From an uncultured Gammaproteobacteria bacterium (lineage in GTDB: Bacteria > Patescibacteriota > Microgenomatia > Levybacterales > UBA12049): 64,000 nt of DNA. A program made the translations under genes and the position numbers. Where the stretch lies: NCBI GenBank assembly GCA_964507055.1, contig CAZDOJ010000001.1, forward strand, positions 977,313 through 1,041,312. The letters run 5' to 3'. Positions 10,008-64,000 of this stretch are shown here, one piece after another. The notes below the pieces were generated by a model. It was not told where the DNA came from, did no database searches, and saw nothing but the letters and a program-made list of their open reading frames with translations. How positions within the stretch are numbered: the stretch's first letter is position 1; each line of letters starts with the position of its first letter.

Positions 10008-11798
10008 TTATTCATTACCTTCAGCGACAAGATGTTCTGGAAGTCTAAAGAGCCCTTCGTCAAGTCTCTTTTGATCTAAGTAATGACTAATAAATCCAAC
10101 TGATCGAGACAATACAAACAATGCATTAAAAAATTCTGTATCAACTAATCTACGTAACTCTGTATGGTCCATATGCTCCTTTTCAGAAAGAATATCTAAG
10201 AGCACTGCTGCGATTGCTCCATCAACATTAAGAATAAGATTACCTTTTTTTGCCGCAGTTATTTTTTCTATTTCTAATGCAAAGGTTATAAATTGTTTCT
10301 CTTTAAGAGTCTTCGTAAACTTTTTAATTTCTGCAACTCGTGGATCAGGGAAATCGACTCGATACTTTTTATGTCCAATTCCAGAAATATATTTTTTCTT
10401 GCGAGCAAACTCTTCAACAAAGCCTGATGGTCGCTCTTGTGCAATAACACCGTCTAACCAATTACCTGCAGCTTGATTAATAGCTCCACCAAATCGAGGG
10501 CCGATTGTAAGTAATCCAGCTGATAAAGAAGATACAAGATCGCGACCCGCACGTGCTGTAATAATTGTATTCATTGCTCCAGAAACATACGGGCCATGAT
10601 CCGCAAGTAAACGGAGAATAAAATCAACAAACTCTACCAGCTCTTTTGATTTTGCTTTCTTCCCCAAAAAGAGTGAGGACACGACACCAGCGAAAGAATT
10701 ATTCTTTGCGAAAGAAAGTAAGTCTTCCTGCAGTAATTGTGGTTGCCCGGCTTTATCAATTGATATTGTTGAGGTAATTAATGACTTTTGTCGAGACTTC
10801 AAAGACGCAACTATTTCATTAAGATCTTGAGAAGTTGATTTTTCATCTGGAATTTGTTTAATGAGATTCATAAACTCAGTATATGAATTTGCGACATTGG
10901 CACCTGCTTGCTGTAATATTTTTCTTTTACCAAGTGCTGTCTCTTCATGTGTCTGAGCTAAAGCTTTTGCATGACCAAATTGCGGAGGTGTTTCAAACAT
11001 ATCAGCAATCGATCCTGCGATATAACAAATTACACGTTTGGTAATTTTCTTCTCTCGGAGTAGCTGAGCAATTTCATATTCATCAGTTCCTCCTAATTCG
11101 CCAAAATATACTATCGCTTTTGTTTGCGGATCTTTCTCAGCAGAAAGAAACGCATCTTTTGGAGTTGTCAGAGGGAACCGCTCACCGCCAAAAGAAAGGG
11201 AAAAAGAAATTCGTTTTCCTAATTGCACAACTGTGTTAATAATTTCATTTGTCATTCCACCAGAAGCAGAGAGAACGGCAACAGATCCGGCATCAAAAAG
11301 TTTTGCTTCACTTAACTGTCGGATATCAACGCCACCAATTGCTCCAAGTTTTATACTATTTGGAATTATTAAACCGATACTTGAAGGACCAATTAAAAAC
11401 TTACCAGTTTTATTTATTTCTTTATGGAGAGCAATTGTATGTTGTTCTGGAACTCCCTCTGCAAAGACGACGCCACCATTTACATTTGGAAAACCATGTA
11501 AAAATTCAAGTGTTGATTGCAAGACACGCCTTCCAGAAGAAAGATTTAAGAAAAAATTACATTCCTTTTTCTTAGGTTCTGGTAGAGCATTTGACGATGC
11601 ATAAACAGGAATTAATATTTCTTTTTTACCAAAGAAGTATCGCTCATTATTTCTTCCTGAAGCAATAATTCCAATAATACTTGGCTTTGATTTTTTTGCC
11701 AAGAAGTCAAAATCTAAAATTGCTTGAATAATTGTAGGATAACTTCCAATTGTAACTATACGTGCTTCAGTTTTTCTTAAAGATGCGATATTTATCAT
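10008..11798 (-). CDS. aclA: ATP-citrate lyase alpha subunit (CoA-binding/ligase plus citryl-CoA lyase domains)
   Basis: Collinear with the C-terminal 2/3 of ACLY. Shared segments: KEILIPVYAS, SASGGMTNEIIN, catalytic QFGHAKA, ADHGPYVSGAMNTIITARAGRDLVSSLSAGLLTIGPRFGGA, NLILNVDGAI, GFISHYLDQKRL. Confidence 0.85.
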   Translation of the reverse strand: MINIASLRKTEARIVTIGSYPTIIQAILDFDFLAKKSKPSIIGIIASGRNNERYFFGKKEILIPVYASSNALPEPKKKECNFFLNLSSGRRVLQSTLEFLHGFPNVNGGVVFAEGVPEQHTIALHKEINKTGKFLIGPSSIGLIIPNSIKLGAIGGVDIRQLSEAKLFDAGSVAVLSASGGMTNEIINTVVQLGKRISFSLSFGGERFPLTTPKDAFLSAEKDPQTKAIVYFGELGGTDEYEIAQLLREKKITKRVICYIAGSIADMFETPPQFGHAKALAQTHEETALGKRKILQQAGANVANSYTEFMNLIKQIPDEKSTSQDLNEIVASLKSRQKSLITSTISIDKAGQPQLLQEDLLSFAKNNSFAGVVSSLFLGKKAKSKELVEFVDFILRLLADHGPYVSGAMNTIITARAGRDLVSSLSAGLLTIGPRFGGAINQAAGNWLDGVIAQERPSGFVEEFARKKKYISGIGHKKYRVDFPDPRVAEIKKFTKTLKEKQFITFALEIEKITAAKKGNLILNVDGAIAAVLLDILSEKEHMDHTELRRLVDTEFFNALFVLSRSVGFISHYLDQKRLDEGLFRLPEHLVAEGNE

Positions 11799-12970
11799 AT
11801 TGTTTTTAATGCTAACGCTACTATTTCCTGTAATGGCATTTCAGGTCCCGAAACATTTCCATATAAGTTTTCTTTTTGTAAAAAGTCTTGCATTTGTGCG
11901 AGTCCTTCAGATTGATGAGGACCACCACGTCGTACAAATACTTGAATATTTTGCTTCTTCAAATTATTTTTCTCTTCATCGAGTGCTTTGATAATACCTG
12001 CAAAAGTTAAGCGAATATCCGTAAAGTTTGCAACACCACCAGCAATAACAAGCACTTTCTTTTTCGCTTTTGATTTTAAAAGTAACTGGAGTAAATGCTT
12101 GGTATACAAATACACTTCTTCAGTATTCGGGTTCCCGCTATACTCTCCATAATTAGCTATCTCTTTTCCATATCCAAGATTATAAACTTCGTCAGCAAGA
12201 ACAATGCTTGCCCCTCCACCGGAGAGAAGCATAAAGACAGAACCATCTGGATTAAGGACATCAAGTTTGAAAGACGCCTGGCTTTTTTTTGCAAGATCTT
12301 CAATAGCTTCTTCTTCCATCAATTTTTTGCGTAGATCTGCTTGTCTAAAATCGCTACTCTTCCACATATCATTAACAAAAAACTCTGCAGAACTATCCAC
12401 TTCTGCCGCAATATCTAGAAAAGCCACAGAGTCTTCAAGTACAATCAATGGGTTAATTTCAAAGAAGGTAAAGTGGTACGTATGAAATATATCGTATATA
12501 GTTTGCAGTATTGGCAACGAAACCCCAAGTTCTTTAGCAACAATATCGAGTTGATTTGCAGAGGTAATCAATAATTTCTGCATTGCACTTTGGTTATCTT
12601 CAACATCAATTCCTCCTTTATTTGAATAGAGGACTTCAACTCCCTCGCGTGTAAGGCTCAATGAGAGATATTTTTCTGTAGTTTTTTCATGTGTGATAAA
12701 AGGTTCAATAATAAAATTTGTATATCCTTTTTTTGATAGTTTCAGTAACCCACTAGCGACTTCAAAAGAAGACTGGTCGAGAAACACAAGCCCTTGCTTC
12801 ATTCGTTTTTTAACGCCTTCATCTACTTTTACAACGTATGTCTTGTCTTTTCTTAATTTTGAATTATCAAATGGTCGTGAGGCGTCAACAGATATTCCTT
12901 CATAAGAAAGTTCGAGTTCTTTGGAGAGAAGCTGCTTTGCTCTAAATTCGCTAATCTTTTTTCGTGCCAT
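11795..12970 (-). CDS. aclB: ATP-citrate lyase beta subunit (ATP-grasp)
   Basis: Collinear with the ACLY N-terminus. Shared segments: FIIEPFITHEK...TREGVEVLYSNKGGIDVED, FEINPLIVLED, LNPDGSVFMLLSGGGASIVLADEV, ANYGEYSGNPN, VFVRRGGPHQSEGL. Confidence 0.9.
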   Translation of the reverse strand: MARKKISEFRAKQLLSKELELSYEGISVDASRPFDNSKLRKDKTYVVKVDEGVKKRMKQGLVFLDQSSFEVASGLLKLSKKGYTNFIIEPFITHEKTTEKYLSLSLTREGVEVLYSNKGGIDVEDNQSAMQKLLITSANQLDIVAKELGVSLPILQTIYDIFHTYHFTFFEINPLIVLEDSVAFLDIAAEVDSSAEFFVNDMWKSSDFRQADLRKKLMEEEAIEDLAKKSQASFKLDVLNPDGSVFMLLSGGGASIVLADEVYNLGYGKEIANYGEYSGNPNTEEVYLYTKHLLQLLLKSKAKKKVLVIAGGVANFTDIRLTFAGIIKALDEEKNNLKKQNIQVFVRRGGPHQSEGLAQMQDFLQKENLYGNVSGPEMPLQEIVALALKTI

Positions 12971-26677: not shown

Positions 26678-29605
26678 ATGTGCTCTATGCCCGATATCTC
26701 CTCTTTAAATCCTGAGCAACAAAAGGCTGTAATGCATGGCGAGGGACCTTTACTTATTATTGCCGGTGCTGGTACCGGTAAAACCACTGTTGTCACAAAA
26801 CGAATTGAACATCTGATCATTGATAAGAATATCCCACCATCAAATATCCTTGCTTTAACATTTACCGAAAAAGCTGCACAAGAAATGGAGACTCGTATTG
26901 ACGAGATCCTTCCGTACGGATACACAACACTTTGGATTGAAACCTTTCATGCTTTTTGTGATCGTATTCTTAGACAAGAAGCGGTTCATATCGGGCTGAC
27001 TCCTTCTTTCACTTTATTAACAGAAGCAGAATGCCTTCTTTTTCTAAGAAAACATTTATTCGAATTTAATCTCGAATATTTCAGGCCGCTTGGGAATCCG
27101 ATGAAATTTCTTCAAGGAATGCTAACGCACTTTAGTAGACTACGTGATGACGATATAACCCCTGAACAATATTTATCTTATGCAAAAAAACTTGAGCAAA
27201 AACAAACAACCGATGATGATCCAATAGATATTAAGAAAACGCTTGAACTAGCAAATGCTTTTGCTAAGTACGAAGAATTAAAAGCCAAAGAAGGAGTTAT
27301 GGATTATTCAAATTTAATTTCTAATACATTAAAACTCTTTCGTGAACGGCCTACAATATTAAAAAAGTATCAAGATCAATTCCAGTATGTTTTCGTTGAT
27401 GAATTCCAAGATACGAATTTCGCACAAAATGAAATGGCAATACTTCTTGCTGGGACTCGGCAAAATATAACAGTCGTTGGAGATGATGATCAGAGTATTT
27501 ATCGTTGGCGTGGTGCAGCAATTGCAAACATGATGCAATTTCGCCAGCATTTTCCAAAAGCCGAAATAATAGCCTTAACAAAAAATTACCGCTCGACAAA
27601 AAGAATTCTCGATGGAGCATATACACTCATCCAAAATAATAATCCTGATCGATTAGAAGTGAAAGAGAATATCGATAAACGACTTGAAGGAATGCGTGGA
27701 ATTGATGGGGATGAAATTACTTTTATATTAGAAAATAACGGGGATGAAGAAGCCGAGGCAGTCGCAAAAGCTATACAAAAAGAAGTCAAAAAAACGAAAA
27801 GACCATATAATGAAATTGCAATTCTTGTCAGAGCAAACGACCATGCGACTCCATTTCAACGATCGCTTGATCGATTAAAAATTCCATTTCAATTCCTTGG
27901 TCCCGGACATCTCTATGAACAAAATGAGATAAAGGATCTTATCGCTTATTTACATGTATTGGCAGATTTTGAAGATACTGGATCTCTTTATCGAGTACTT
28001 ACTATGCCGATCTTTGGACTGCAAGCAAGGGATATTGCAGCAATACTTAATTTCTCCAAACGTGGAAATATGACATTATTTGAAGCGATGGAACGAGTCG
28101 AGGAAACGATGCTGACAGAAGAAGGAAAAGAAAAAATTCTTCAGATCATAAAAATGATTAAAAAGCATCTTGAGCAAGTTCCTCAGGAGCAAGCCGGACA
28201 AATTTTGTATCACTTCTTTGAAGATTCAGGACTTCTTGGGCACTATCTTGATCCTGGTTCGATGCGTACAGAAAAAGAGGCACAGAATGTTGCGAAATTC
28301 TTTGAGAAACTTCAAGGCTTTGCAAATAATAAAACCGATGCGTCAGTTTTTGCGGTCGTAGATTGGATTGATCTCTCAATGGAGCTAGGAGAAAGTCCTA
28401 TGGCAGCTGAGGTTGATTGGACAAAAAATAATGCAGTAAATATTCTCACAATTCACTCAAGTAAAGGTTTGGAATTCCCTGTCGTTTTTGTTGTGAATCT
28501 CGTCACGCAACGATTTCCAAGTCGAGATAGAAAAGAACAAATTCCTGTTCCACCGGACATTATTCGAGAGACACTACCTGAAGGAGATGAAGGCTTACAG
28601 GAAGAGCGACGATTGTTTTATGTAGCAATAACGCGTGCACAAGAAAAATTATTTCTTACAGCTGCAAGGTTTTATAACGAAGGAAAAAGAGAACGAAAGA
28701 TTTCTCCATTTGTCATGGAAACACTCGGCGATGCTTTTGTACAAAACACTATGAAAAAACAAGCAGCTGAACCAATCGGACAACAGCTTTCATTACTTGA
28801 AGTCTTTAATGCCAATATCACAGAGAAACCTGTGGATGAAATAAAGAAACCAGAACCAATCGATATCACCTACATTTCATATTCTCAATTACAGACATTT
28901 GGGATGTGTCCTTTGCATTATAAATTACGTTATTTACTGAATCTTCCATCTCCCACGTCCCCTGCTTTGAGTTATGGAGTTAGTGTTCATGGAGCACTAA
29001 GGGATTTCTTTATGGAGATGAAACAAGGTACAAATGTCTCACAAGAAACAGTAAAAGAACTTTTAAAGAAGAACTGGATTGCTCAGGGATATGCAAGTAA
29101 ACAGCATGAACAACAAACATATCAACAGGCAGAAACTATGCTTCAGGACTACAGCAGTAAAATTGTTACAAACAAGCCCAATACAATTGCGATTGAAACG
29201 CCTTTCAATTTCTGGCTTGGCAAACTAAAAGTTGGAGGAAGAATTGATAGAATCGATCAATTACCTGATGGCCGAATAGAAATCATTGATTATAAAACCG
29301 GTAAGAATGTTCCGACAGAGAAAAAAGTGCAGGAAGATTTACAGCTGTCGATATATGCTTTAGCTGCAACAGAAGTTCATGATAGTATTTTGGGGAAAAC
29401 ACCAGATGAAGTTGTCTTAACGCTCCACTATCTAGAAGATGATATAAAGCTTTCAACAACAAGATCGAAAGACGCATTACTTTTTGCGAAAGAGCAAATT
29501 CTCCAAAAAGTAGATGAAATAAGTAAAAGCTCATTCCATTGTAGTGCAACTATGCAATGCAAAAATTGCGAATATAAAATGCTCTGTCAAAATAGTAAAG
29601 CATAA
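26678..29605 (+). CDS. UvrD/PcrA-family SF1 helicase fused to a C-terminal Cas4/AddB-like PD-(D/E)XK nuclease with 4-Cys Fe-S cluster
   Basis: Walker A AGAGTGKT. Motif II VFVDEFQDT. Motif VI ...VAITRAQEKLFL. C-terminal nuclease region: C at GMCPLHY, DRIDQL...IIDYKTGK, and a CSATMQCKNCEYKMLC cluster. Confidence 0.8.
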   Translation: MCSMPDISSLNPEQQKAVMHGEGPLLIIAGAGTGKTTVVTKRIEHLIIDKNIPPSNILALTFTEKAAQEMETRIDEILPYGYTTLWIETFHAFCDRILRQEAVHIGLTPSFTLLTEAECLLFLRKHLFEFNLEYFRPLGNPMKFLQGMLTHFSRLRDDDITPEQYLSYAKKLEQKQTTDDDPIDIKKTLELANAFAKYEELKAKEGVMDYSNLISNTLKLFRERPTILKKYQDQFQYVFVDEFQDTNFAQNEMAILLAGTRQNITVVGDDDQSIYRWRGAAIANMMQFRQHFPKAEIIALTKNYRSTKRILDGAYTLIQNNNPDRLEVKENIDKRLEGMRGIDGDEITFILENNGDEEAEAVAKAIQKEVKKTKRPYNEIAILVRANDHATPFQRSLDRLKIPFQFLGPGHLYEQNEIKDLIAYLHVLADFEDTGSLYRVLTMPIFGLQARDIAAILNFSKRGNMTLFEAMERVEETMLTEEGKEKILQIIKMIKKHLEQVPQEQAGQILYHFFEDSGLLGHYLDPGSMRTEKEAQNVAKFFEKLQGFANNKTDASVFAVVDWIDLSMELGESPMAAEVDWTKNNAVNILTIHSSKGLEFPVVFVVNLVTQRFPSRDRKEQIPVPPDIIRETLPEGDEGLQEERRLFYVAITRAQEKLFLTAARFYNEGKRERKISPFVMETLGDAFVQNTMKKQAAEPIGQQLSLLEVFNANITEKPVDEIKKPEPIDITYISYSQLQTFGMCPLHYKLRYLLNLPSPTSPALSYGVSVHGALRDFFMEMKQGTNVSQETVKELLKKNWIAQGYASKQHEQQTYQQAETMLQDYSSKIVTNKPNTIAIETPFNFWLGKLKVGGRIDRIDQLPDGRIEIIDYKTGKNVPTEKKVQEDLQLSIYALAATEVHDSILGKTPDEVVLTLHYLEDDIKLSTTRSKDALLFAKEQILQKVDEISKSSFHCSATMQCKNCEYKMLCQNSKA

Positions 29606-36820: not shown

Positions 36821-36891
36821 CGGAGTGTAGTATAGTGGTAGTACGCTGGGCTGGGGGTCCGGTAGTCGACGGCCTATTCGCAGCACTCCGG
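36821..36891 (+). tRNA. tRNA-like element, possible tRNA-Pro(GGG) with non-canonical T-arm
   Basis: GC-rich 70-nt island in an AT-rich spacer. 7-bp acceptor CGGAGTG/CACTCCG with C1:G72 as in bacterial tRNA-Pro. U8 A9 present. D-arm GTAT-AGTGGTA-GTAC. Anticodon arm CTGGG-CTGGGGG-TCCGG (U33, GGG, G37). No TTCRANY T-loop could be folded by hand. Confidence 0.3.
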
Positions 36892-42208: not shown

Positions 42209-43291
42209 TTGATTGCACACTCCTTCTCTATGAATACTCAGTCTTCATCATCCAAATTTACCTTTATTGATTTATTTGCAGGGATTGGAGGTTTCAGACT
42301 CGCTTTAGAAAAATATGGTGGAGAATGTGTATTTAGTTCTGAATGGGACAAAAAATCTCAGGAAACATACGCTGCAAACTTTAAAGAAATTCCCCATGGC
42401 GATATTACAAAAATTAAGGAGAAAGATATACCAGCTCATGACATTTTATGTGCAGGATTTCCATGTCAAGCTTTTAGTATCTCTGGAAAAAGGTTAGGAT
42501 TTAATGATACACGAGGAACTCTTTTTTTTGATATTGCTAGAATAACCAAGCTTCATACTCCCAAAATACTTTTTCTAGAAAATGTCAAAAACTTCACAAA
42601 ACATGATGGTGGAAAAACATTGACAGTAGTTTTGCATACCCTTAAAGAACTCAATTACACGCCTTTTTATAAAGTCCTCAGATCTAGCGATTATAATGTG
42701 CCACAAGCAAGAGAGCGGGTATATATCGTTGCTTTTCGAAATGATCTTAAGGTTGAAGAGTTTCATTTTCCAAACCCATCTAAGAGTATCAACGTAGTTA
42801 AGGATATTCTTGAACCTGCGAATAAAGTAGCAATGGAAAATTATATTCTCCGCAAAGATATCAATATGTATGGACTGGATAAAATTTCTACAGATAAACG
42901 AAAACCCCTCCAGATAGGAAAGATTAGCAAAGGTGGACAAGGAGAAAGGATTTATTCTATAGACGCAGCGGGAATAACACTATCAGCATATGGTGGTGGG
43001 GCAGCAAGTAAAACTGGAGCTTATTGGGTGAATGAAAAAGTGAGAAAACTAACCCCCCGAGAATGTGCAAGATTGCAAGGATTTCCTGAATCCTATATAA
43101 TTCACGGCACGAGGAATGTAGCTTATAGACAATTTGGCGATAGTGTTTCGGTTCCAGTCCTTGAGGCAATTTTTAATAAAATTATAGCTACTTGTCCGAC
43201 AATTCTTCATGACAATGCAAAAAAGAATGTGAAGAAAAATATAATCGTGCAAGCACATCAATTAATCATAAATACATCAAATGCATACTAA
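42209..43291 (+). CDS. DNA (cytosine-5)-methyltransferase, HpaII-like (CCGG-type candidate)
   Basis: Motif I FIDLFAGIGGF. Motif IV GFPCQAFSISGKR. Motif VI ENVKNF. Motif VIII QARERVYIV. Motif X RLQGFPESY. Overall layout as I recall for M.HpaII-like enzymes. Confidence 0.85.
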   Translation: MIAHSFSMNTQSSSSKFTFIDLFAGIGGFRLALEKYGGECVFSSEWDKKSQETYAANFKEIPHGDITKIKEKDIPAHDILCAGFPCQAFSISGKRLGFNDTRGTLFFDIARITKLHTPKILFLENVKNFTKHDGGKTLTVVLHTLKELNYTPFYKVLRSSDYNVPQARERVYIVAFRNDLKVEEFHFPNPSKSINVVKDILEPANKVAMENYILRKDINMYGLDKISTDKRKPLQIGKISKGGQGERIYSIDAAGITLSAYGGGAASKTGAYWVNEKVRKLTPRECARLQGFPESYIIHGTRNVAYRQFGDSVSVPVLEAIFNKIIATCPTILHDNAKKNVKKNIIVQAHQLIINTSNAY

Positions 43292-51748: not shown

Positions 51749-52333
51749 ATGGCCCAACCCTCCGTGGAACAAAACTCCGGCCTTGAAGATCAAGCTTTAC
51801 TCATTGCAGGAGAAATTTTCAATTTAATAAATCAATATACGCATGACAGCACCGTCTCAAAATTTTTTCTTGCCGATGAGGTAGCGAATGCATGTTATGG
51901 ACTTGCGGCAGGATTTACAGCAGTTGTGTATACTCCATCATTGGATCCGGAGGAAACCATTGACTGTGCGCTCCTCTCGTTTCTCTATGCATTGATGACG
52001 TATGGTTTTAATATTTACTTAAAAGAGCGTTCACTTCGAACAAATGCAGCACCCTATCGGATGCCAATGGATATAAAAATAATAAAGAATGCACAAAAGA
52101 CAACACTGGCAAAAACATCGAAAGGTAATCTTGTATCGACTCCTTTAGCTGATAAGATAATCGCAATTATCATGGAGAATATTGAGCATCAAATGGATTT
52201 GGATGAATTTCATCTCAAAAAGCATCGCATGAACAAGACAAAATTCTGGAACTATTCAAAGTTATCGTTATATTGGGGATATAATTTTGCGGAGACGTTA
52301 ATTGAACCGAAGCGAAAACCAACGAAAGATTAA
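51749..52333 (+). CDS. hypothetical protein
   Basis: 194-aa ORF with no motif. Confidence 0.4.
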   Translation: MAQPSVEQNSGLEDQALLIAGEIFNLINQYTHDSTVSKFFLADEVANACYGLAAGFTAVVYTPSLDPEETIDCALLSFLYALMTYGFNIYLKERSLRTNAAPYRMPMDIKIIKNAQKTTLAKTSKGNLVSTPLADKIIAIIMENIEHQMDLDEFHLKKHRMNKTKFWNYSKLSLYWGYNFAETLIEPKRKPTKD

Positions 52334-53445
52334 ACAGATTTAACAACTTCCCAAGGGAATTCTTCACGTCCAAAGTGGCCATATGCTGCAGTCTTACTAT
52401 AGATTGGTCGAGCCAAATCTAATGCTTCGATAATACCTTTGACTGAAGTATCAATAAGTTTGTCTTTAAATGCATGCAGTTCTTCATCACTTACTTTTGC
52501 AGTACCAAATGTTTCGATTGTTTGCATCAATGGACGAGGTTGTCCGATAACGTATGCCAAACCAACTTCGCATTTGTCAGCGAGACCTGCTGCAACGATA
52601 TTCTTTGCGATATACCGAGCTGCATATGCACCACTTCGATCAACTTTACTTGGATCTTTACCACTAAATGCTCCGCCACCAACTCTTGCGTATCCACCAT
52701 AGGTATCAACAACGATCTTTCGTCCTGTCAATCCAGCGTCTGATTCTGGTCCAGGAATATGCCATAGACCTGTACCATTTATGATGATATCTTTATCTTC
52801 AGGAAGAGCGAGTTTGTATTTTTCAAGAACTGGAGTAAAAATTGATTTAATTACATCTGCTCGAACTTGTTCTGCACTTGTTTCTTCACTATGAGCAACC
52901 GCTGCAACGAGTTTTTCAATAGCAACTGGTTTGCCATCTTCATAACGAATTGTTACTTGTGTCTTTCCATCAGGTCGAAGCCATGGAAGTTCTTTTGTTT
53001 CACGAGCTTCATCGATTCGTCGGGTAAGTGCATGTGCGAGGGTAATTGGAAGAGGCATAAGTTCAGGAGTTTCATTGCAAGCATAGCCAAACATCATACC
53101 TTGGTCGCCTGCACCATCTTGGTCAACACCCATAGCAATTTCAGGAGATTGTGCATGAATATTGTCAAAGAATGCTGATTCTTGACTAAAACCCCATGCA
53201 GGTACTGTGTATCCAAGCTTTTCGATTGTTTCCCGGACAATTGTTTCGAAGTTAACTTTTGCAGTTGATTTGATTTCCCCAAAAAGACTGATTTGATTTG
53301 CTCCAGCAACTGTTTCAACACCTGCTCGTGAGTGAGGATCTTGTGCCAATAATGCATCGACAATTGCGTCACTGATCTGATCACAGATTTTATCTGGATG
53401 TCCTGCACATACTGATTCTGATGTAAATAATGTTGTATTAGCCAT
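52330..53445 (-). CDS. metK: S-adenosylmethionine synthetase
   Basis: GHPDKICDQISDA, the metal/ATP motifs, and C-terminal GGGAFSGKDPSKVDRS. Confidence 0.95.
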   Translation of the reverse strand: MANTTLFTSESVCAGHPDKICDQISDAIVDALLAQDPHSRAGVETVAGANQISLFGEIKSTAKVNFETIVRETIEKLGYTVPAWGFSQESAFFDNIHAQSPEIAMGVDQDGAGDQGMMFGYACNETPELMPLPITLAHALTRRIDEARETKELPWLRPDGKTQVTIRYEDGKPVAIEKLVAAVAHSEETSAEQVRADVIKSIFTPVLEKYKLALPEDKDIIINGTGLWHIPGPESDAGLTGRKIVVDTYGGYARVGGGAFSGKDPSKVDRSGAYAARYIAKNIVAAGLADKCEVGLAYVIGQPRPLMQTIETFGTAKVSDEELHAFKDKLIDTSVKGIIEALDLARPIYSKTAAYGHFGREEFPWEVVKSV

Positions 53446-53570
53446 AAAAAAATCCCTCTGCTAAAGGGATCGTATAATTTTGCCCTTTAGACCACATCTC
53501 TCCTTATGGAGACTGGCACCCGTTAACGTAAGGGTTGCCGGCTCACCGAAGTGAACTCTCTTGATGTTTT
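53446..53570 (-). promoter_or_regulatory. SAM-I-type riboswitch with RBS-sequestering expression platform, 5' leader of metK
   Basis: Minus-strand RNA reads ACAUCAAGAGAG-UUCACUUCGGUGAGCC-GGCAACC-CUUACGUUAACGG-GUGCCA-GUCUCCAUAAGGAGAG-AUGUGG. This contains the SAM-I core boxes AUCAAGAGAG, GGCAACC, GGUGCCA and a closing AGAUG. It is followed by hairpin CUAAAGGG...CCCUUUAG and AGAGGGAUUUUUUU-AUG, so CCCUUU can pair with either AAAGGG or the RBS AGAGGGA. Confidence 0.75.
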
Positions 53571-53611
53571 CATATTATTGCATAAATACAGTTGGTTTTC
53601 AAGATGAAATA

Positions 53612-57127: not shown

Positions 57128-60100
57128 ATGTCAACGCCAGATGGATCATTACCAGAAGTACAACAGTCGCAGACAGAATCAGAGCAAGGTTCTGAACCAG
57201 AACTTGAAGTTACAAGATTAGGCAGATCAGCAGATCGAGTACTTTCACCTGAAAATGTAGGAAAATCCGAAAATGCAATTGTGAGAGTAGGAAAAGACGC
57301 TTCAGTAGTTATAGGGAAGGGAGATAAAAACCTTACAGTGTATAGTGATGATGGAGAGATTGTGGGACTATCGAACACTAATCTTGTTATGGCAGATTGG
57401 GGTGCACTTGCATCACCGGAAGACGGTTCATGGAAACTTATACGGAGTGTGGCAGACGCACAAATAGATGAGAATAATATCTTACTTGAAGATTTACCTA
57501 CGGAATTACGATCTGTAGCACAGAATCTTCTTGGATCTGGAACTTCAGTAGAATTACCGCAAGAATCTTGGGAAATAAAAACCACCGATATGAGTCAGGT
57601 TGCCATTGATAATGATGACGGCTATGTTGTTATATACCAACCAGGCACTCCTAACTTTATTGCTTTTAAGACCGAAAATGCACAAGGTGAGGCTTTGGCT
57701 GTACGGAATTGGCAACGGATTGACACACAAACAGATGACCCGAGACAAATTTTCCAAGAGAGAGCTCACTATATGCAACTTGAAAATACTCGGTCGTTGC
57801 GACATACAAGGAATGGTGTATCCATTATTGTTGCAGAAAATGGTGTTGATTTTCGAAGAGGTGCTCAAGGTGTACATGCTGAAAATCTTCCCAATGTGCA
57901 AAATAATGTTAGTGAAGACCCAAGTTCTCCGGGAGTTGTTTACTTCTGTAGCGAAAACGATACAGTAATAAGACGTATTGATACAAACTCTTCAAATCCA
58001 AAATCAGAAGAAATTCCACTCCCTTCCGAGTATCCTGGAATCCAAAATCTTACGCTAGATAAAACAGGAAACTTTCTCACATTTACATCGAAAGGTACAT
58101 TCTATGTGCTTGAAAAAAATACTTTACGCGAAGTACATGAAATACCCAATATATATCACGCTTCATTAGATGCTAGCGATATTATAAAAGGAATAGATGT
58201 AGAGGGACATTTAGTTACATTCCAAGCAGACTTCCAACCACTTGTTCAGGCTATTCGTGCGAGAGAAGTAGCAGAAGCTGCACAGAAAGCTGCTGAACAA
58301 CTTGATCCTGATGCTATTGCGACACAAAAGGCTGCTGAATTGGATAGACAATTTGGCCATCTTAAAGGACAGCGAGATGATTTGGCAGCACAAATCAAAA
58401 GTAGAGTTGAAGGGATTACTGATCTTAACGCATTTAATGAAGAATTTGATCGAGTCACACAGCTTATCAATGGAATGGGATTACAACCTGGAGAACAAGA
58501 TTATATGCGTCCGGCTTTAGAAAAAGTGGTCCAAGAGCGAAGACAGGCAGTCGTTGCAGATGTCTTTTCTACTGATTTAACTTCCCTCCAAGAACTCATT
58601 GAAGGATCCATGGATATGTCCACATACGCACAAGCGGCAAATGTTCTCGCAAATCTTAATTCTTTACGTGGAGATATAACTGATGAAACTGTCAAGCAAC
58701 GGCTCCAACAACTTGAAGGTCGTTTTCAGGAAAAAGATAAGCAGTTCCGAAGAGAACAAAATGAGCATATCAAAGTAACAACAGCAGATGTTCTTGCAAG
58801 AGCGAAGCAAGCTATTGCTGCAATGAAAAGTAAAAGTGCTTTAGCAGTTTGGTCTGAGGAAGAGCTATCAACATTCAGATCAGAACTTGGAAACCTTCGT
58901 GTTATCAGTATTCCCGAGAACCATGGAGTTATTGATCAAGCACAGACTGCAATCTTCCGTGCAATCAAAGAACGTCGGGAAGCAATTGAAGATATGGAAG
59001 CAGCAACTGGAACAACAGAGACAGACCTGCGTGAAATTCAAATTAATTCATACAAGGAAGAAATAAGAAGCCTTCTTGAAACAATGGGAGATCAAGGTTT
59101 CCAAAATAGAGATCAAATTGCTCGGTACCTCGAAGGGAGTAATCGTTACACTGATTTGCAAGAGCAGGTTATAGAATTATTACGAAGCGATCCTCAAGCA
59201 GGTCGAGAAATTAGAAGAGAGCTCGGAGTTTCTTTAGCTCTTTATATGGCAGAGGTTGAGAGAGCTACTCGCTCTGATGCAGACGGTGACGGACGACCTA
59301 TGGTGATGCTAGGAGAGGTTCCGTTCCCTGTATGGCAAGAACGACGTAAATCCAAACGTGAAAAAGAAAAACATGTTGAACTCACTTTTATTCCTGATCC
59401 AAATGCTGCCCCAATGAGAGAAAACGGAAAAACAGTAACACTTGGAGAGATTGGCGTACAAGTAAGAAATGGCAAACCAGACGTAACAATTTCACGAGTC
59501 TATCAAGGCAAAACTGACGAGGAGGATTGGAGAAATGGCTTAGTCGAATACCGTGGAACATACACAGAAGGAACTCGAGTTACTAATATTGAGATGCAAA
59601 AGATAAAAAGTGATTATCGAGATTGGCAAAAAGGCGAAGGTTCTGATATCAGAAAAGAGTTATCAGCAAAGAAAAAAGCATTCCAAGACTTCTTCCTTGA
59701 GCGTCCTGTAACACTGCCGGACGGATCAGAGGTAACACTAAGTGAAGCAAAGTCACGTATAAAAGGCTTTAGAGAGCGAGGAGAAGAAGTCCCAATGATT
59801 GCTGTTGATACAAAAAAAGGTACAACAATACAAAAGCCATATGAATTTGCTGAAGGAGATACTGCAACGGATTGGGAGCAAGAATACAAAAGATTAGTGG
59901 AAGAGTATGGAGAATTTGCAGCAGAAAAGCATACACTTCTTTTTGAGCGTCTCGATGAATTGAAGAAAGCACCGGATACTGACGAACCAAGTAGTCTTGG
60001 ATATGTTCCTGAATGGAAGAGTCATTGGACGATAGATAAACAAACATCAGAATACCTCGGAAAGATGGCAAAAGACGCAACAATGCAGTTAGAACTTCAG

Positions 60101-61054
60101 CAAGGCATCATCAATCTTGAAGGTCACGCTGGAACAGGGAAAGACGTCTTGGTTAAGATGTTCTGTCATGAAACAAAGAGACCGTACTTTGCCTTTGATT
60201 GTTCCAAGTGGACAGTAGAAAGTGATCTCGCAGAAGATATCACACTTGAAAATGGCAGTGTGGTAAAGATACCGTCAGCAGTTCTTCAGGCAATTGAAAC
60301 TCCAGGAGCAGTACTTTACTTTAATGAAATTAACGCAATGCCTGAGCCTACTCAAATTTTCCTCCACTCACTTCTGGATGAAAAACGTACACTTACATTG
60401 AAAACAAGTGGAGGAAAATCAGTTAGAGCATTACCAAGTGTTCTCTTTATGAGTTCCATGAATCCGAATTACCCAGGAACTTTTGATCCACAATTTGCGA
60501 CAAAGAGTCGTATGGATTACCTCCCTATAGACTATCCACCACTTGTCGATCCTGAGAATACAAGTAAATTTAGTGCATCAGAAGCACTTCGTATCGCACG
60601 AGGTGTTGATTCACTTGAAGAACATACATATGACCTGGACCTCAAACATAATGAGTTTGTAAAAATTTGGGATAAATATATAAACGGTGAAGCAAATGAT
60701 GCACCACATATCAGCCGAGAACAGCATTTTGATTTGCAAACCATTCAGGCACTTGTACAATTTGCTGATCAATTACGAACCGCATTTAAAGATAAGTTTA
60801 GTCCGTCAAGAGCTACTCAGAGAGATAGGGATGCTCTTAAAATTAGTCAGCCAATGACAGGACGTGAGCTTGCAAAATGTGCATATGATTTAAGTGTCAT
60901 GGATGATACTCAAAAAATTGGTACAGGGGCTGATCCAGTAGCAACTGCAAAAAGACTTATTGAGCAACGACTTCTAACAAAAGTTTCGAATGCCCAGGAA
61001 TTAGAAAAAGTTACGACAGAGCTCAGAACCTGGACAGTACAACCACGACCGTAA
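57128..61054 (+). CDS. giant (1308 aa) protein with C-terminal AAA_5 / MoxR-like AAA+ ATPase domain; N-terminal about 980 aa of unknown, coiled-coil-rich architecture
   Basis: Walker A LEGHAGTGKD. Walker B AVLYFNEINAM. Sensor-1 region VLFMSSMNPN. These give the AAA_5 layout (dynein/midasin/MoxR/CbbQ clade). Confidence 0.75.
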   Translation: MSTPDGSLPEVQQSQTESEQGSEPELEVTRLGRSADRVLSPENVGKSENAIVRVGKDASVVIGKGDKNLTVYSDDGEIVGLSNTNLVMADWGALASPEDGSWKLIRSVADAQIDENNILLEDLPTELRSVAQNLLGSGTSVELPQESWEIKTTDMSQVAIDNDDGYVVIYQPGTPNFIAFKTENAQGEALAVRNWQRIDTQTDDPRQIFQERAHYMQLENTRSLRHTRNGVSIIVAENGVDFRRGAQGVHAENLPNVQNNVSEDPSSPGVVYFCSENDTVIRRIDTNSSNPKSEEIPLPSEYPGIQNLTLDKTGNFLTFTSKGTFYVLEKNTLREVHEIPNIYHASLDASDIIKGIDVEGHLVTFQADFQPLVQAIRAREVAEAAQKAAEQLDPDAIATQKAAELDRQFGHLKGQRDDLAAQIKSRVEGITDLNAFNEEFDRVTQLINGMGLQPGEQDYMRPALEKVVQERRQAVVADVFSTDLTSLQELIEGSMDMSTYAQAANVLANLNSLRGDITDETVKQRLQQLEGRFQEKDKQFRREQNEHIKVTTADVLARAKQAIAAMKSKSALAVWSEEELSTFRSELGNLRVISIPENHGVIDQAQTAIFRAIKERREAIEDMEAATGTTETDLREIQINSYKEEIRSLLETMGDQGFQNRDQIARYLEGSNRYTDLQEQVIELLRSDPQAGREIRRELGVSLALYMAEVERATRSDADGDGRPMVMLGEVPFPVWQERRKSKREKEKHVELTFIPDPNAAPMRENGKTVTLGEIGVQVRNGKPDVTISRVYQGKTDEEDWRNGLVEYRGTYTEGTRVTNIEMQKIKSDYRDWQKGEGSDIRKELSAKKKAFQDFFLERPVTLPDGSEVTLSEAKSRIKGFRERGEEVPMIAVDTKKGTTIQKPYEFAEGDTATDWEQEYKRLVEEYGEFAAEKHTLLFERLDELKKAPDTDEPSSLGYVPEWKSHWTIDKQTSEYLGKMAKDATMQLELQQGIINLEGHAGTGKDVLVKMFCHETKRPYFAFDCSKWTVESDLAEDITLENGSVVKIPSAVLQAIETPGAVLYFNEINAMPEPTQIFLHSLLDEKRTLTLKTSGGKSVRALPSVLFMSSMNPNYPGTFDPQFATKSRMDYLPIDYPPLVDPENTSKFSASEALRIARGVDSLEEHTYDLDLKHNEFVKIWDKYINGEANDAPHISREQHFDLQTIQALVQFADQLRTAFKDKFSPSRATQRDRDALKISQPMTGRELAKCAYDLSVMDDTQKIGTGADPVATAKRLIEQRLLTKVSNAQELEKVTTELRTWTVQPRP

Positions 61055-61057
61055 TAT

Positions 61058-64000
61058 ATGGCAGAAGAATTTCATGGACCACGCCCTGAGTCGGAAGACC
61101 GACAACAGACAAGACCTATTAATCCAACAACTTCTGAGGAGGTCAAGGGAAACCGTGTTATAGAATGGGTCAAGAACTTGTTTACGAGAAGAGATAAAAC
61201 GACACATAGAGAGGTAGAAAAGCCAGAAACTCCACGATTCAGGCCTCCGGAGAGACCCGAACAGGACAAACAACAACCCGAAAATTTTGATAAGACACAT
61301 GCACGGGAAAAATTATTCTTGGCAGAACAAGGAACAGATGGCTTACAAGTATTACCAGGTAACCACTGGGCTATGCATTATCCCAATGGTGCAGAAGAAA
61401 AAAAGGCTGCTGTTGAAAGATTATTTGATGGATCTTCTCGACCATCAGCAGAAATTGCCAATGTCACGCCTGATGCATTAATTTATGATCAAAAAGATAT
61501 CCAAAGACATGGATTGGATCCTGTGAGGCAGCGAATTGATAAAACTGTTACTACTTTTGAAAATTTTGATTTCCCCCGCTTTACGGCATTTGTTTCTGAG
61601 ATGAGCGGCACCACTATGACTCCTGAAATGGCCGAAAAGTATTACCACACAATTGCGGAAGATAAAGCAAAACAAGTAATGCTCAATACCTATGATCACG
61701 CGGACAAAGATGCTGTTATAGCTTCTCTCCGGCAGGAAATAACATCTGTGGCAACGAATGCAGCCTCCATTGAACCTATGCAAAAAATACTCTCTGCTGG
61801 AGGCATCAACGCACTAAATCCGCAGGGTATGGGCATGTTCCAAGAGCAACGACAAATTGAAGACTCATTGCAGAGTGACCAAAAAGCTATATATGAAGAG
61901 ATAAAGAGCGCATATAAAGATTACATTGAACATGGAGATGAACAAGCATACAGAACAATTGTCGAGACGATTAAATCATTCCATGCGGCCGAACAAGAGC
62001 AACAGACTCAAGAAGAAAAACCTACTCCCCCTTCAGAATCAGAGTTAAGTGAGCCGCCGGAAGCAAGTGACGAATATAATCCACCGAAAGAATCTGATCC
62101 AACAAATAAACGATATTATGAAGTAACTCCAGCGGGCAAAAATACTGAGCCTCCACAAGGATATTATGCAAGCCGTAAAGATTCTGATTTTGACTTTGAT
62201 ACAAAATCTTGGTCTACACCTACTCGAGTGGTGCCATGGACACAATCAATTTCAGGAGATGATAGACAAACAATTACCGGTATCTCTGGAACAACTACTT
62301 TTGGGATTCCGGTTCCTGAAGGATATGCACTGGATATGAATTCGTTTAAAGTATCTGGCAATCCAACGATCACCCGTGACCAACATGGTTGTTTTTATAT
62401 CCAAAATACCGAACGCGGACAATTTAAAATTGATTTTGTAAAGGAAGAACCGCCCTTCCAAAAAGATGCAAGCTTTGCTGATACACAAACAATTCATAGA
62501 GGGCTTCTTACGCATGACGCTGAATCATTTATTGCTGAATTAAAACAAGCCAATGTACCGGCTATAGAGCGTGCAGAAAAGATTCTAGAATTTATCCACC
62601 AAAGGCATGTTTATCCGGCAGATTTTGCAGAAGCTGCACAAATTCAGGATGAGCTGAGAAATAGATCAACCCCTGATAATTATATTCAAACTCTCGAGCT
62701 ATCAAGAAAGCTTGAATGCCTTTCTGCAAATACATTGTTTATTGCAATGCTCAGACATGCTGGAGTTTCCTCACGAGTCATCGGAGGACACAATGTTTCA
62801 GAACTCACCGACCAAAAAGTTGTGATGGATGAATCGACTTCTCATGCATGGTCTGAAGTTTGGGATGGAGACAAATGGATAACAATGGATGCAACACCAC
62901 CCAAAGAACAACAAGTTCAAGAACAAGGCAATGAAGGACAGGAGAAAGAAAGCCCCTCAGAGTTTGGAGAAGATGGTCTTCCAAAAGAAGCAGTAACTGA
63001 TGAAGAAAAAGCTGAAGCAGAAAAAAACCTTGAAGCGTCACATGAAGCAGCAGAACAGGCTCTCCAACAAAGAGATCATATGCAGGAACAGATGGAAAAT
63101 GCCGCTTCATTTCAGGATTTTGAAGATCTCAAAAATGATATAGCAAATGATCCAGCACTTTTTGAGGATATGAAAGAAGCACTGGAAAAGATCATTGAAG
63201 CAAAAGAAGAACAGAAAAAAGAAGAAGTAAAAGAAGAGCTCAACCAGATGATGGAAGATGGTTTTTTAAGCGAAGAAGATGAAAAACGAATACGAGAGCT
63301 CATAGACCAACGCTCAGGACAAGGTCTTGATGAATTAAAACGTCAAATCGAAACTGAAAGTAAAGCATTTCAGGAATTTGATAATTTGCGTGAAGAAGTC
63401 ACACCATTGGTTGATGAATGGTACGATTACTTTGTCGAGCGACTTCCAAAAGAAGACGTTATTGAACTAGATGAAGATAGTACAGGTAGAAAAGGAACAA
63501 TTAACAAGCAAGCATTAAAACGACCAGGGAGTCAAATGTTTGGACAAGTATTCAATCCTCGGACTTTCCGACCTGAAATTCGTCCCAAATTCCTTGCATC
63601 AATTGCTGTAGATGTAAGTCTATCAATGGCCACACCAACTCCAGGAGGAAGTACACGACTTGATGATGCAAAAAAACTGATGGTATTTTATAACGAACTC
63701 TTTTCAAGGATCAGCAAAGAGCACGGATACATCCGTTTCTCTCTCTATTCCTTCGCAAAAGATGTCAATGTTATTAAGCAATTTGATCAGGAATACAATT
63801 CATCTGAACGATATGATTTCCCTGATGGAAAGCAATCAACTATCAAAAAACGATTGATGGAAAGCTTGAAATTAGATCAGTATACAAATATGTTTGGGGC
63901 TGTCCAAACTGCAGCACATGACCTTAATGAGGAAATACAGAGTTATCCGGATTATGCATCATCACTCTACTTTGTGGGAGACGGAGGAGATTCATTCGTT
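61058..64000 (+). CDS. large protein with transglutaminase-like cysteine-protease core and C-terminal vWA (MIDAS) domain; 3'-truncated by the window edge
   Basis: ATG lies 3 nt after the upstream TAA (TAA-TAT-ATG), in the same frame, and is open to nt 64000. This ORF is absent from the supplied track. TGase-like core: ECLSANTLFIAMLRHAGVSSRVIGG...SHAWSEVWDGDKWITMDAT (Cys/His/Asp). vWA: IAVDVSLSM (DxSxS MIDAS) ... LYFVGDGGD. Confidence 0.7.
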   Translation, partial: MAEEFHGPRPESEDRQQTRPINPTTSEEVKGNRVIEWVKNLFTRRDKTTHREVEKPETPRFRPPERPEQDKQQPENFDKTHAREKLFLAEQGTDGLQVLPGNHWAMHYPNGAEEKKAAVERLFDGSSRPSAEIANVTPDALIYDQKDIQRHGLDPVRQRIDKTVTTFENFDFPRFTAFVSEMSGTTMTPEMAEKYYHTIAEDKAKQVMLNTYDHADKDAVIASLRQEITSVATNAASIEPMQKILSAGGINALNPQGMGMFQEQRQIEDSLQSDQKAIYEEIKSAYKDYIEHGDEQAYRTIVETIKSFHAAEQEQQTQEEKPTPPSESELSEPPEASDEYNPPKESDPTNKRYYEVTPAGKNTEPPQGYYASRKDSDFDFDTKSWSTPTRVVPWTQSISGDDRQTITGISGTTTFGIPVPEGYALDMNSFKVSGNPTITRDQHGCFYIQNTERGQFKIDFVKEEPPFQKDASFADTQTIHRGLLTHDAESFIAELKQANVPAIERAEKILEFIHQRHVYPADFAEAAQIQDELRNRSTPDNYIQTLELSRKLECLSANTLFIAMLRHAGVSSRVIGGHNVSELTDQKVVMDESTSHAWSEVWDGDKWITMDATPPKEQQVQEQGNEGQEKESPSEFGEDGLPKEAVTDEEKAEAEKNLEASHEAAEQALQQRDHMQEQMENAASFQDFEDLKNDIANDPALFEDMKEALEKIIEAKEEQKKEEVKEELNQMMEDGFLSEEDEKRIRELIDQRSGQGLDELKRQIETESKAFQEFDNLREEVTPLVDEWYDYFVERLPKEDVIELDEDSTGRKGTINKQALKRPGSQMFGQVFNPRTFRPEIRPKFLASIAVDVSLSMATPTPGGSTRLDDAKKLMVFYNELFSRISKEHGYIRFSLYSFAKDVNVIKQFDQEYNSSERYDFPDGKQSTIKKRLMESLKLDQYTNMFGAVQTAAHDLNEEIQSYPDYASSLYFVGDGGDSFV

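Follow-up and report, generated by a model that had tools for sequence, protein, structure and literature searches.

The 3' end of a 64,000-nucleotide stretch of contig CAZDOJ010000001.1 (assembly GCA_964507055.1; the whole stretch is referred to here as the window) carries two adjoining genes, g1 and g2, encoding a large AAA+ ATPase and a large protein that joins a transglutaminase-like (TGase) core to a von Willebrand factor A (vWA) domain with its metal ion-dependent adhesion site (MIDAS). The domain identities, the intact catalytic and metal-binding residues, the strict adjacency of the genes, their co-inheritance and their recovery solely from contigs of the candidate phyla radiation (CPR) type are established. 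On balance, it is suggested that the two products probably form a soluble, cytoplasmic AAA+/vWA remodelling machine of the CbbQ/NorQ/CobS branch of the MoxR family, in which the vWA partner would deliver a thiol-peptidase/transglutaminase activity, a proposal that leans on analogy with solved relatives. The pair belongs to a known type of system, the MoxR-family AAA+/vWA pair, and its distinctive features are a giant propeller-stalk extension (the propeller being a putative assignment), the TGase-vWA fusion and a GKD/NE nucleotide site. An initial annotation of the window, made from the letters alone, had placed AAA_5, transglutaminase-like and vWA/MIDAS domains in two large proteins, and Pfam, Foldseek and invariant motifs bear this out; it did not extend to the GKD Walker A, the propeller or how widely the pair is distributed in the CPR. 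The open reading frames (ORFs) and their junction are as follows.

57128..61054, + strand: g1 ORF, ATG start, TAA stop, 1308 amino acids (aa), 147 kDa
61058..64000, + strand: g2 ORF, first 981 of 1057 residues inside the window, 121 kDa at full length
61052..61060, + strand: g1-g2 junction TAA-TAT-ATG, read directly from the sequence

The TAA of g1 is followed by the three bases TAT and then by the ATG of g2 at 61058, from which g2 stays open to the end of the window (981 codons). Its missing 3' end was recovered on a Logan contig, L001, which matches the window exactly along 16,873 bases and supplies 77 further codons, giving an uninterrupted ORF of 1057 aa (L001 13931-17104; window coordinate = L001 coordinate + 47127). 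Given that the same two proteins recur on 10 contigs, the longest of 1.32 Mb, the ORFs are not accidents of assembly. The tight juxtaposition remarked on in the initial annotation holds across the family: g1 and g2 are 3-27 nt apart in 28 of the 30 orthologous pairs, and the remaining two junctions are apparent overlaps that depend on the choice of start codon. The shared frame described there is present in the window, where both starts are 2 mod 3, but is not conserved: g1 and g2 share a frame at just 8 of the 30 orthologous junctions, where chance would give about 10. The common reading frame is a product of chance, and read-through or fusion of g1 and g2 is rejected on the same count. The spacing suggests translational coupling of the two genes. 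Promoter and terminator scans gave no more than the shuffled expectation.

The architecture of g1 was derived from Pfam and from an AlphaFold2 (AF2) model built on 49 sequences, which covers residues 109-1308 at a mean predicted local distance difference test (pLDDT) score of 85.9 and leaves residues 1-108 outside. Four regions are distinguished.

57128..58225, + strand: g1 residues 1-366, beta-rich, putative WD40-like beta-propeller region (AF2 model, from residue 109)
58235..59272, + strand: g1 residues 370-715, long all-helical stalk of about 350 aa (model helices H262-607, pLDDT ~80-90)
59297..59851, + strand: g1 residues 724-908, mixed alpha/beta domain (model secondary structure)
59858..61030, + strand: g1 residues 911-1301, CbbQ/NorQ-type AAA+ module with N-terminal helices, alpha/beta core and lid

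The N-terminus is beta-rich in the model and is read as a WD40-like propeller whose blade-repeat assignment is putative; a profile of this region found nothing significant among PDB sequences. A Flg_hook identity was tried for it and set aside, matches being present in 8 of 31 orthologues at a best E of 3e-4, too weak to use. The stalk aligns without gaps across the 49 orthologues, and the alpha/beta domain that follows had no match in sequence comparison with PDB and Pfam; its residues 859-908 are inserted in the clade of the window alone, other orthologues showing 68% gaps there. The roughly 980-aa N-terminal region had earlier been described as rich in coiled coil, and this stands for the helical stalk, whereas the remainder is modelled as a propeller-like region and an alpha/beta domain. 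Both Pfam and the model place a single AAA module at the C-terminus, where AAA_5 matches residues 997-1129 (E 7.8e-14). This motor is closest to CbbQ/NorQ by sequence and by fold, and its best profile match is the CobS-like PHROG_249 (68 bits). A hydropathy scan of g1 revealed no hydrophobic, transmembrane or signal-like segment, which indicates a soluble protein.

Comparison of the motor with CbbQ and NorQ shows that its nucleotide site departs from the canonical form at two positions.

60122..60145, + strand: Walker A GHAGTGKD, Asp1006 in place of the canonical Ser/Thr (alignment with CbbQ and NorQ)
60311..60328, + strand: Walker B VLYFNE, Asn1066 in place of the canonical Asp, catalytic Glu1067 present
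60461..60511, + strand: sensor-1 Asn1112 to arginine-finger Arg1128, aligned with SYNP and STKQRF of CbbQ

In the alignment, Asn1066 occupies the position of the CbbQ/NorQ Asp and Asp1006 that of their Ser, and g1 matches neither the canonical Walker A GxxGxGK[ST] nor the canonical Walker B hhhhDE. The N-E reading of Walker B made in the initial annotation is real: D1006, N1066, E1067, N1112 and R1128, together with the Walker A pattern G-x-x-G-x-G-K-D, are invariant across the 49 aligned orthologues and, judged from this alignment, the non-canonical site is under strong selection. Among the 149 relatives from a representative search (P0008-P0156), 88 have a GKD-form Walker A; where both motifs could be read, the combinations were GKD with NE (80), GKN with DE (29), GKD with DE (1) and GKN with NE (1), a distribution that divides two clades and hence represents very few independent events, so that a Fisher p-value overstates it. 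The GKN/DE proteins form a sister family (P0096-P0151), AAA_5 proteins about 1060-1200 aa long whose resemblance to g1 is confined to the motor. In both GKD/NE and GKN/DE exactly one carboxylate is retained between the two Mg-proximal positions. The GKD/NE arrangement is best read from the alignment as a relocated Mg2+ ligand in what would be an active ATPase and not as a dead site; the catalytic Glu, the sensor-1 Asn and the Arg finger show no variation. The g1 family thereby offers a natural experiment on the P-loop, in which a near-universal Ser/Thr has become Asp with a compensating change of the Walker B Asp to Asn, and in the sister family Asn and Asp exchange places.

The second protein consists of a variable tail, a conserved helical N-domain, a beta-sandwich, the TGase core, a helical linker and the vWA domain. 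Its model is shallow (5 sequences, mean pLDDT 59) and the N-terminal 400 residues are poorly predicted; it is confident for the beta-sandwich at about 400-470, the TGase core at 485-615, the helices at 648-795 and an alpha/beta domain at 845-1055.

62510..62902, + strand: transglutaminase-like core, g2 residues 485-615 (Transglut_core in 32/32 orthologues)
62717-62719, 62843-62845 and 62888-62890, + strand: TGase triad Cys554, His596 and Asp611 respectively, invariant in 32 sequences
62999..63442, + strand: acidic long-helix linker from TGase to vWA, g2 residues 648-795, about 150 aa (model, pLDDT ~75-90)
63590..64000, + strand: vWA domain, g2 residues 845-981 in the window and on to 1055 beyond it (Foldseek, Pfam matches of orthologues)
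63611-63625, + strand: MIDAS motif DVSLS, with T943 and D975 of g2

Residues 85-400 are conserved in orthologues, yet profile comparison gave no match to anything known. Transglut_core matches residues 534-612 (E 6.5e-12; 46 bits against a cut-off of 23), and the closest solved relative of the core is TgpA (6g49), by Foldseek and by a family profile (E 8e-6). The helical linker is conserved across orthologues, as is the C-terminal helix. Pfam called no vWA domain in the g2 of the window itself; among the 32 orthologues VWA_2 was called in 20 and VWA in 10, and conservation of the MIDAS residues D852, S854, S856, T943 and D975 is complete or at least 90%. Foldseek matched the C-terminal domain (pLDDT ~80) to vWA/I domains at a target TM of 0.5-0.69, these being CMG2, the Rea1/MDN1 MIDAS, Ku80, Rpn10, integrin I and BatB. 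As for g1, no transmembrane or signal-like segment was detected (maximum KD19 1.05), and g2 is taken to be soluble. Both proteins align from end to end, and hypervariability is confined to the terminal tails.

Word-indexed searches returned the query and one relative, but this near-uniqueness was an artefact, since known orthologues were missed, and the result on rarity was replaced by an exhaustive HMMER search and a genome scan. Among 1.84 billion representatives, HMMER returned 107 clusters (50% identity) at E <= 1e-30, mostly of 1260-1390 aa, and the g1 family is broad in the CPR yet not universal. The scan of one genome per species gave 244 relatives of g2. The CPR/Patescibacteria names among the listed g2 loci are Levy-, Parcu-, Pacei-, Kerfeld-, Uhr-, Taylor- and Peregrini-/Peribacteria, Altimarinota and others; Gammaproteobacteria, Methyloversatilis, Pseudomonadales and Sulfotelmatobacter also appear among the labels, and these non-CPR labels are suspected to be binning errors. 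The weakest matches, which cover the TGase only, are labelled Acidobacteria and Bdellovibrionales. The initial annotation was right in taking the pair to be associated with the CPR and uncharacterised: the 31 complete pairs (30 and the window) all come from CPR/Patescibacteria-type contigs, and full-text literature searching found no description of the family. In all 31, g1 lies directly upstream of g2, and a g1 relative was found directly upstream on the same strand at every full-length g2 locus where the contig reached upstream. Pairwise identities of g1 and g2 over these loci are correlated at r = 0.96. The neighbourhood does vary, as the flanking genes are not conserved across the 31 loci outside the clade of the window, and because no other gene is conserved beside g1 and g2 across the family, the pair itself is regarded as the functional unit. 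CPR genomes are small and the pair takes up 7.1 kb (the longest pair-bearing contig is the one of 1.32 Mb), an investment that suggests an important, so far unnamed function.

How such a pair might work can be sketched by analogy. In NorQD, the nearest system for which structures of the complex have been solved, a finger of the vWA domain sits in the pore of the hexamer, with a C-terminal contact and a twisting linker, and the authors presume this mode of AAA+/vWA interaction to be general (PMC13036017); the general principle of MoxR-vWA systems is capture of a peptide by the MIDAS followed by ATP-driven remodelling (PMC7159879). Given that g2 has a NorD-like layout (vWA, long helical linker, N-terminal body) and a conserved C-terminal helix, a comparable docking is proposed. 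The C-terminal AAA+ modules of six g1 chains would form a ring from which six stalk-plus-propeller arms point outward, and one or few g2 molecules would dock on it through the vWA domain, so that a loop enters the pore and the C-terminal helix rests on the surface of the ring. The MIDAS would take hold of a client protein by an acidic residue or peptide, and ATP turnover would twist or stretch the linker of g2 and in this way position or activate the Cys-His-Asp TGase-like domain, which might then cleave, deamidate or cross-link the client. The propellers could choose the client or anchor the complex of about 1 MDa. Several points weigh against this proposal. Ring formation, stoichiometry and the finger-in-pore contact would be carried over by analogy from NorQD, and the model of g2 is weak, most of all in its N-terminal 400 residues. 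The changes in Walker A and B could alternatively mean ATP binding without hydrolysis, or use of another nucleotide or metal, and the split between GKD/NE and GKN/DE is one between two clades. Furthermore, no conserved neighbour beside the pair indicates a client, and the patchy presence (about 107 clusters) suits an accessory as well as a housekeeping function.

A conflict-system role had been thought plausible in the initial annotation, and it is possible to see in the pair an NTP (nucleoside triphosphate)-thresholded defence system, in which the propeller would sense the invader, the AAA+/vWA module set the threshold and the TGase-like peptidase serve as effector. Some VMAP systems do have peptidase heads of the transglutaminase-like kind and MoxR-vWA conflict systems repeatedly contain beta-propellers (PMC7159879), and the pair is a self-contained module of patchy presence whose neighbours are unrelated between genomes. 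Nevertheless, this is unlikely, and positive evidence for it was not obtained: PADLOC gave no match for g0-g5, a scan of viral contigs found no relative, and neither a VMAP-like third component nor a conserved neighbour was seen at the 31 loci in a scan made without VMAP-specific profiles. No sensor or effector region is hypervariable, and propeller and TGase align throughout; gene order is fixed, g1 and g2 co-diverge tightly, and the GKD P-loop is unlike the GXXXTAKS of the propeller/FtsH conflict systems (PMC7159879). A lineage-specific role in assembly, maturation or quality control is favoured over immunity. The same domain types (MoxR-family ATPase, vWA-like protein, TGase and propeller) also occur in the actinobacterial MoxR-DUF58-transglutaminase clusters PFNA and Esr, and this raises the possibility of a signalling or surface-maturation module with Ser/Thr kinases, in which the TGase would process or anchor a partner. 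In PFNA the MoxR ATPase is a phosphorylation target of the kinase (PMC8430577), MoxR, vWA, a propeller protein, a TGase and kinases come together in Esr (PMC13622651), a 699-aa Ser/Thr kinase is encoded directly upstream of g1 in one 70%-identical relative, and the TGase of g2 is closest to TgpA. Since the motor subfamily and the solubility of g1 and g2 are unlike those of PFNA and Esr, we consider such a module quite improbable.

The closest solved or annotated relatives of the motor are exactly those of NorQD, CobST, CoxDE and CbbQO, so that a chaperone for metal or cofactor insertion, with a TGase-like domain that mainly binds the client, has also to be weighed. The surroundings of the pair contain no conserved gene for a metalloenzyme, Rubisco, NOR or cobalamin, these systems offer no equivalent of the giant propeller and stalk, and the strictly conserved Cys-His-Asp triad would, from its conservation, argue for catalysis and against mere client binding; the idea is given slightly less credence than a signalling module. 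Finally, the pair could be a midasin-like biogenesis factor that strips proteins from, or installs them on, ribosomes or another large ribonucleoprotein. Only its closest relatives suggest this, and the linkage of the pair to ribosomal genes is not conserved, its absence from most CPR lineages by cluster count is a poor fit to a core ribosome factor, and g1 has a single AAA module in place of six fused ones; of the accounts considered here, this is the least probable by our estimate. In summary, the AAA+/vWA remodelling machine with a TGase output is preferred.

The clade of the window is the exception to the variable surroundings of the pair. Here three genes, g3-g5, lie downstream in four genomes despite rearrangement of the flanks, in a region (L001 17101-22817) just past the end of the window and with no Pfam match.

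g3, - strand: 123 aa
g4, - strand: 1197 aa (1190-1240 in the clade), with a Gly/Ala-rich hydrophobic hairpin at about 240-285 and long coiled coils
g5, + strand: 557 aa (540-560 in the clade), tail-anchored, with a C-terminal transmembrane segment

These genes were considered as parts of the system and rejected, since they are absent beside all other pairs even by hidden Markov model search; the association is specific to the clade. In the 70%-identical relative, the kinase gene upstream of g1 lies at L004 4344-6443 (+), and that contig has a chimeric or inverted 3' end, with g2 residues 92-161 on the opposite strand. Elsewhere in the window, several further features were recorded.

53466-53572, - strand: SAM-I/IV riboswitch (Rfam RF01725; 43.6 bits, gathering score 41.1), immediately upstream of the gene for S-adenosylmethionine synthetase (52330-53445, - strand)
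36821-36891, + strand: Rfam tRNA match (31 bits, barely over the gathering score), perhaps an atypical tRNA, perhaps a false positive; ARAGORN reported no such tRNA anywhere in the window
10008-11798, - strand: CoA-ligase and citrate-synthase C-terminal domains, with an adjacent ORF at 11795-12970 (-), a layout of the ATP-citrate-lyase or citryl-CoA type that is unexpected in a small CPR-type genome
6163-7680, - strand: class I lysyl-tRNA synthetase
26678-29605, + strand: UvrD-helicase/PD-(D/E)XK nuclease fusion, AddA-like
42209-43291, + strand: C5 cytosine DNA methylase

The pair of the window is one branch of a CPR-wide association of TGase-vWA and AAA_5 proteins. At more distant loci (L049-L084) TGase-vWA proteins of about 860-900 aa stand beside large AAA_5 proteins of other architectures, with either gene first (for example L052 5132-12079, L070 8304-14084 and L059 9560-16010). 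Three architectures were distinguished: a motor near residue 220 of an upstream protein of 870-935 aa, a motor near residue 260 of a downstream protein of 750-1100 aa, and a motor near residue 865 of a downstream protein of about 1140 aa. The lineages concerned are Doudna-, Kaiser-, Magasanik-, Morani-, Berkel-, Falkow-, Gracili- and Absconditabacteria, and at several of these loci the open frames apparently require genetic code 25. A bolder proposal, which we hold to be doubtful, is that the TGase-vWA/AAA_5 pairs would constitute a CPR-specific class of midasin-like, protein-modifying machines of about a megadalton, with the Mg-ATP carboxylate moved from Walker B to Walker A, that serve a process peculiar to reduced episymbiotic cells, such as the assembly or turnover of a lineage-specific structure. 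If true, this would be a new functional class of AAA+/vWA systems, beyond one more chaperone pair.

Comparison with known systems places the pair nearest to NorQ-NorD and CbbQ-CbbO, in which a motor likewise adjoins a partner with an N-terminal domain, a long linker and a C-terminal vWA/MIDAS. The sensor-1 residue and Arg finger are conserved between g1 and these motors, and the mechanics are likely the same (PMC13036017). However, NorQ and CbbQ are nearly motor-only proteins of about 260-380 aa with canonical GK[ST]/DE motifs, whereas g1 has about 900 extra N-terminal residues and the GKD/NE site; NorD and CbbO have no transglutaminase domain, whereas g2 does, and there are no NOR or Rubisco genes near g1 and g2. 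CobS-CobT, the motor of aerobic cobaltochelatase, which phages carry as well, is similar in that the CobS-like PHROG_249 is the best profile for the g1 motor and CobT has a C-terminal vWA domain. It differs in that g1 is four times longer, the partner of g1 contains a TGase, and the pair has no CobN or cobalamin context.

The initial annotation had instead seen in g1 and g2 a redistributed MoxR-DUF58-transglutaminase triad, and this could not be shown. The triad of MoxR proper, DUF58 and TgpA/YebA, including the bifidobacterial PFNA, does have the same three domain types, and the kinase neighbour of one g1/g2 relative adds a likeness to PFNA. Its ATPase, however, is an AAA_3-type MoxR (YeaC), whereas g1 is of the AAA_5, CbbQ/NorQ/CobS-like type, and its DUF58 is a separate protein, whereas in g2 a vWA domain with a full MIDAS is fused to the TGase. 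To our knowledge, DUF58 proteins generally do not have a canonical MIDAS, and Pfam scans of g1, g2 and their orthologues gave no DUF58 match. TgpA and YebA are furthermore membrane proteins with an extracytoplasmic TGase, unlike g2, which is soluble and has no membrane segments. The MoxR-vWA ternary conflict systems (Kaur et al. 2020: VMAP, iSTAND, FtsH and beta-propeller types) resemble the pair in combining a MoxR-family ATPase with vWA, propellers and occasional TGase-like heads. They are distinguished by a third component and diverse effectors, neither of which was seen at the 31 loci, by a propeller that lies on the C-terminal side of the vWA domain and not on the ATPase as in g1, by different P-loop variants and by their origin in multicellular bacteria, the pair being from the CPR.

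Midasin/Rea1 is like g1 and g2 in its AAA_5-type motor, ring-docking MIDAS, very large size and long helical linker, and fold-level matches to it were obtained with both the motor of g1 and the vWA domain of g2. Nevertheless, midasin carries six AAA modules and the MIDAS in one eukaryotic chain of about 5000 aa, whereas each g1 chain contributes one AAA module and g2 bears the MIDAS together with a TGase. Relative to these systems, the TGase-vWA fusion would add covalent modification of proteins to what MoxR-type motors are known to bring about, namely remodelling and metal insertion.

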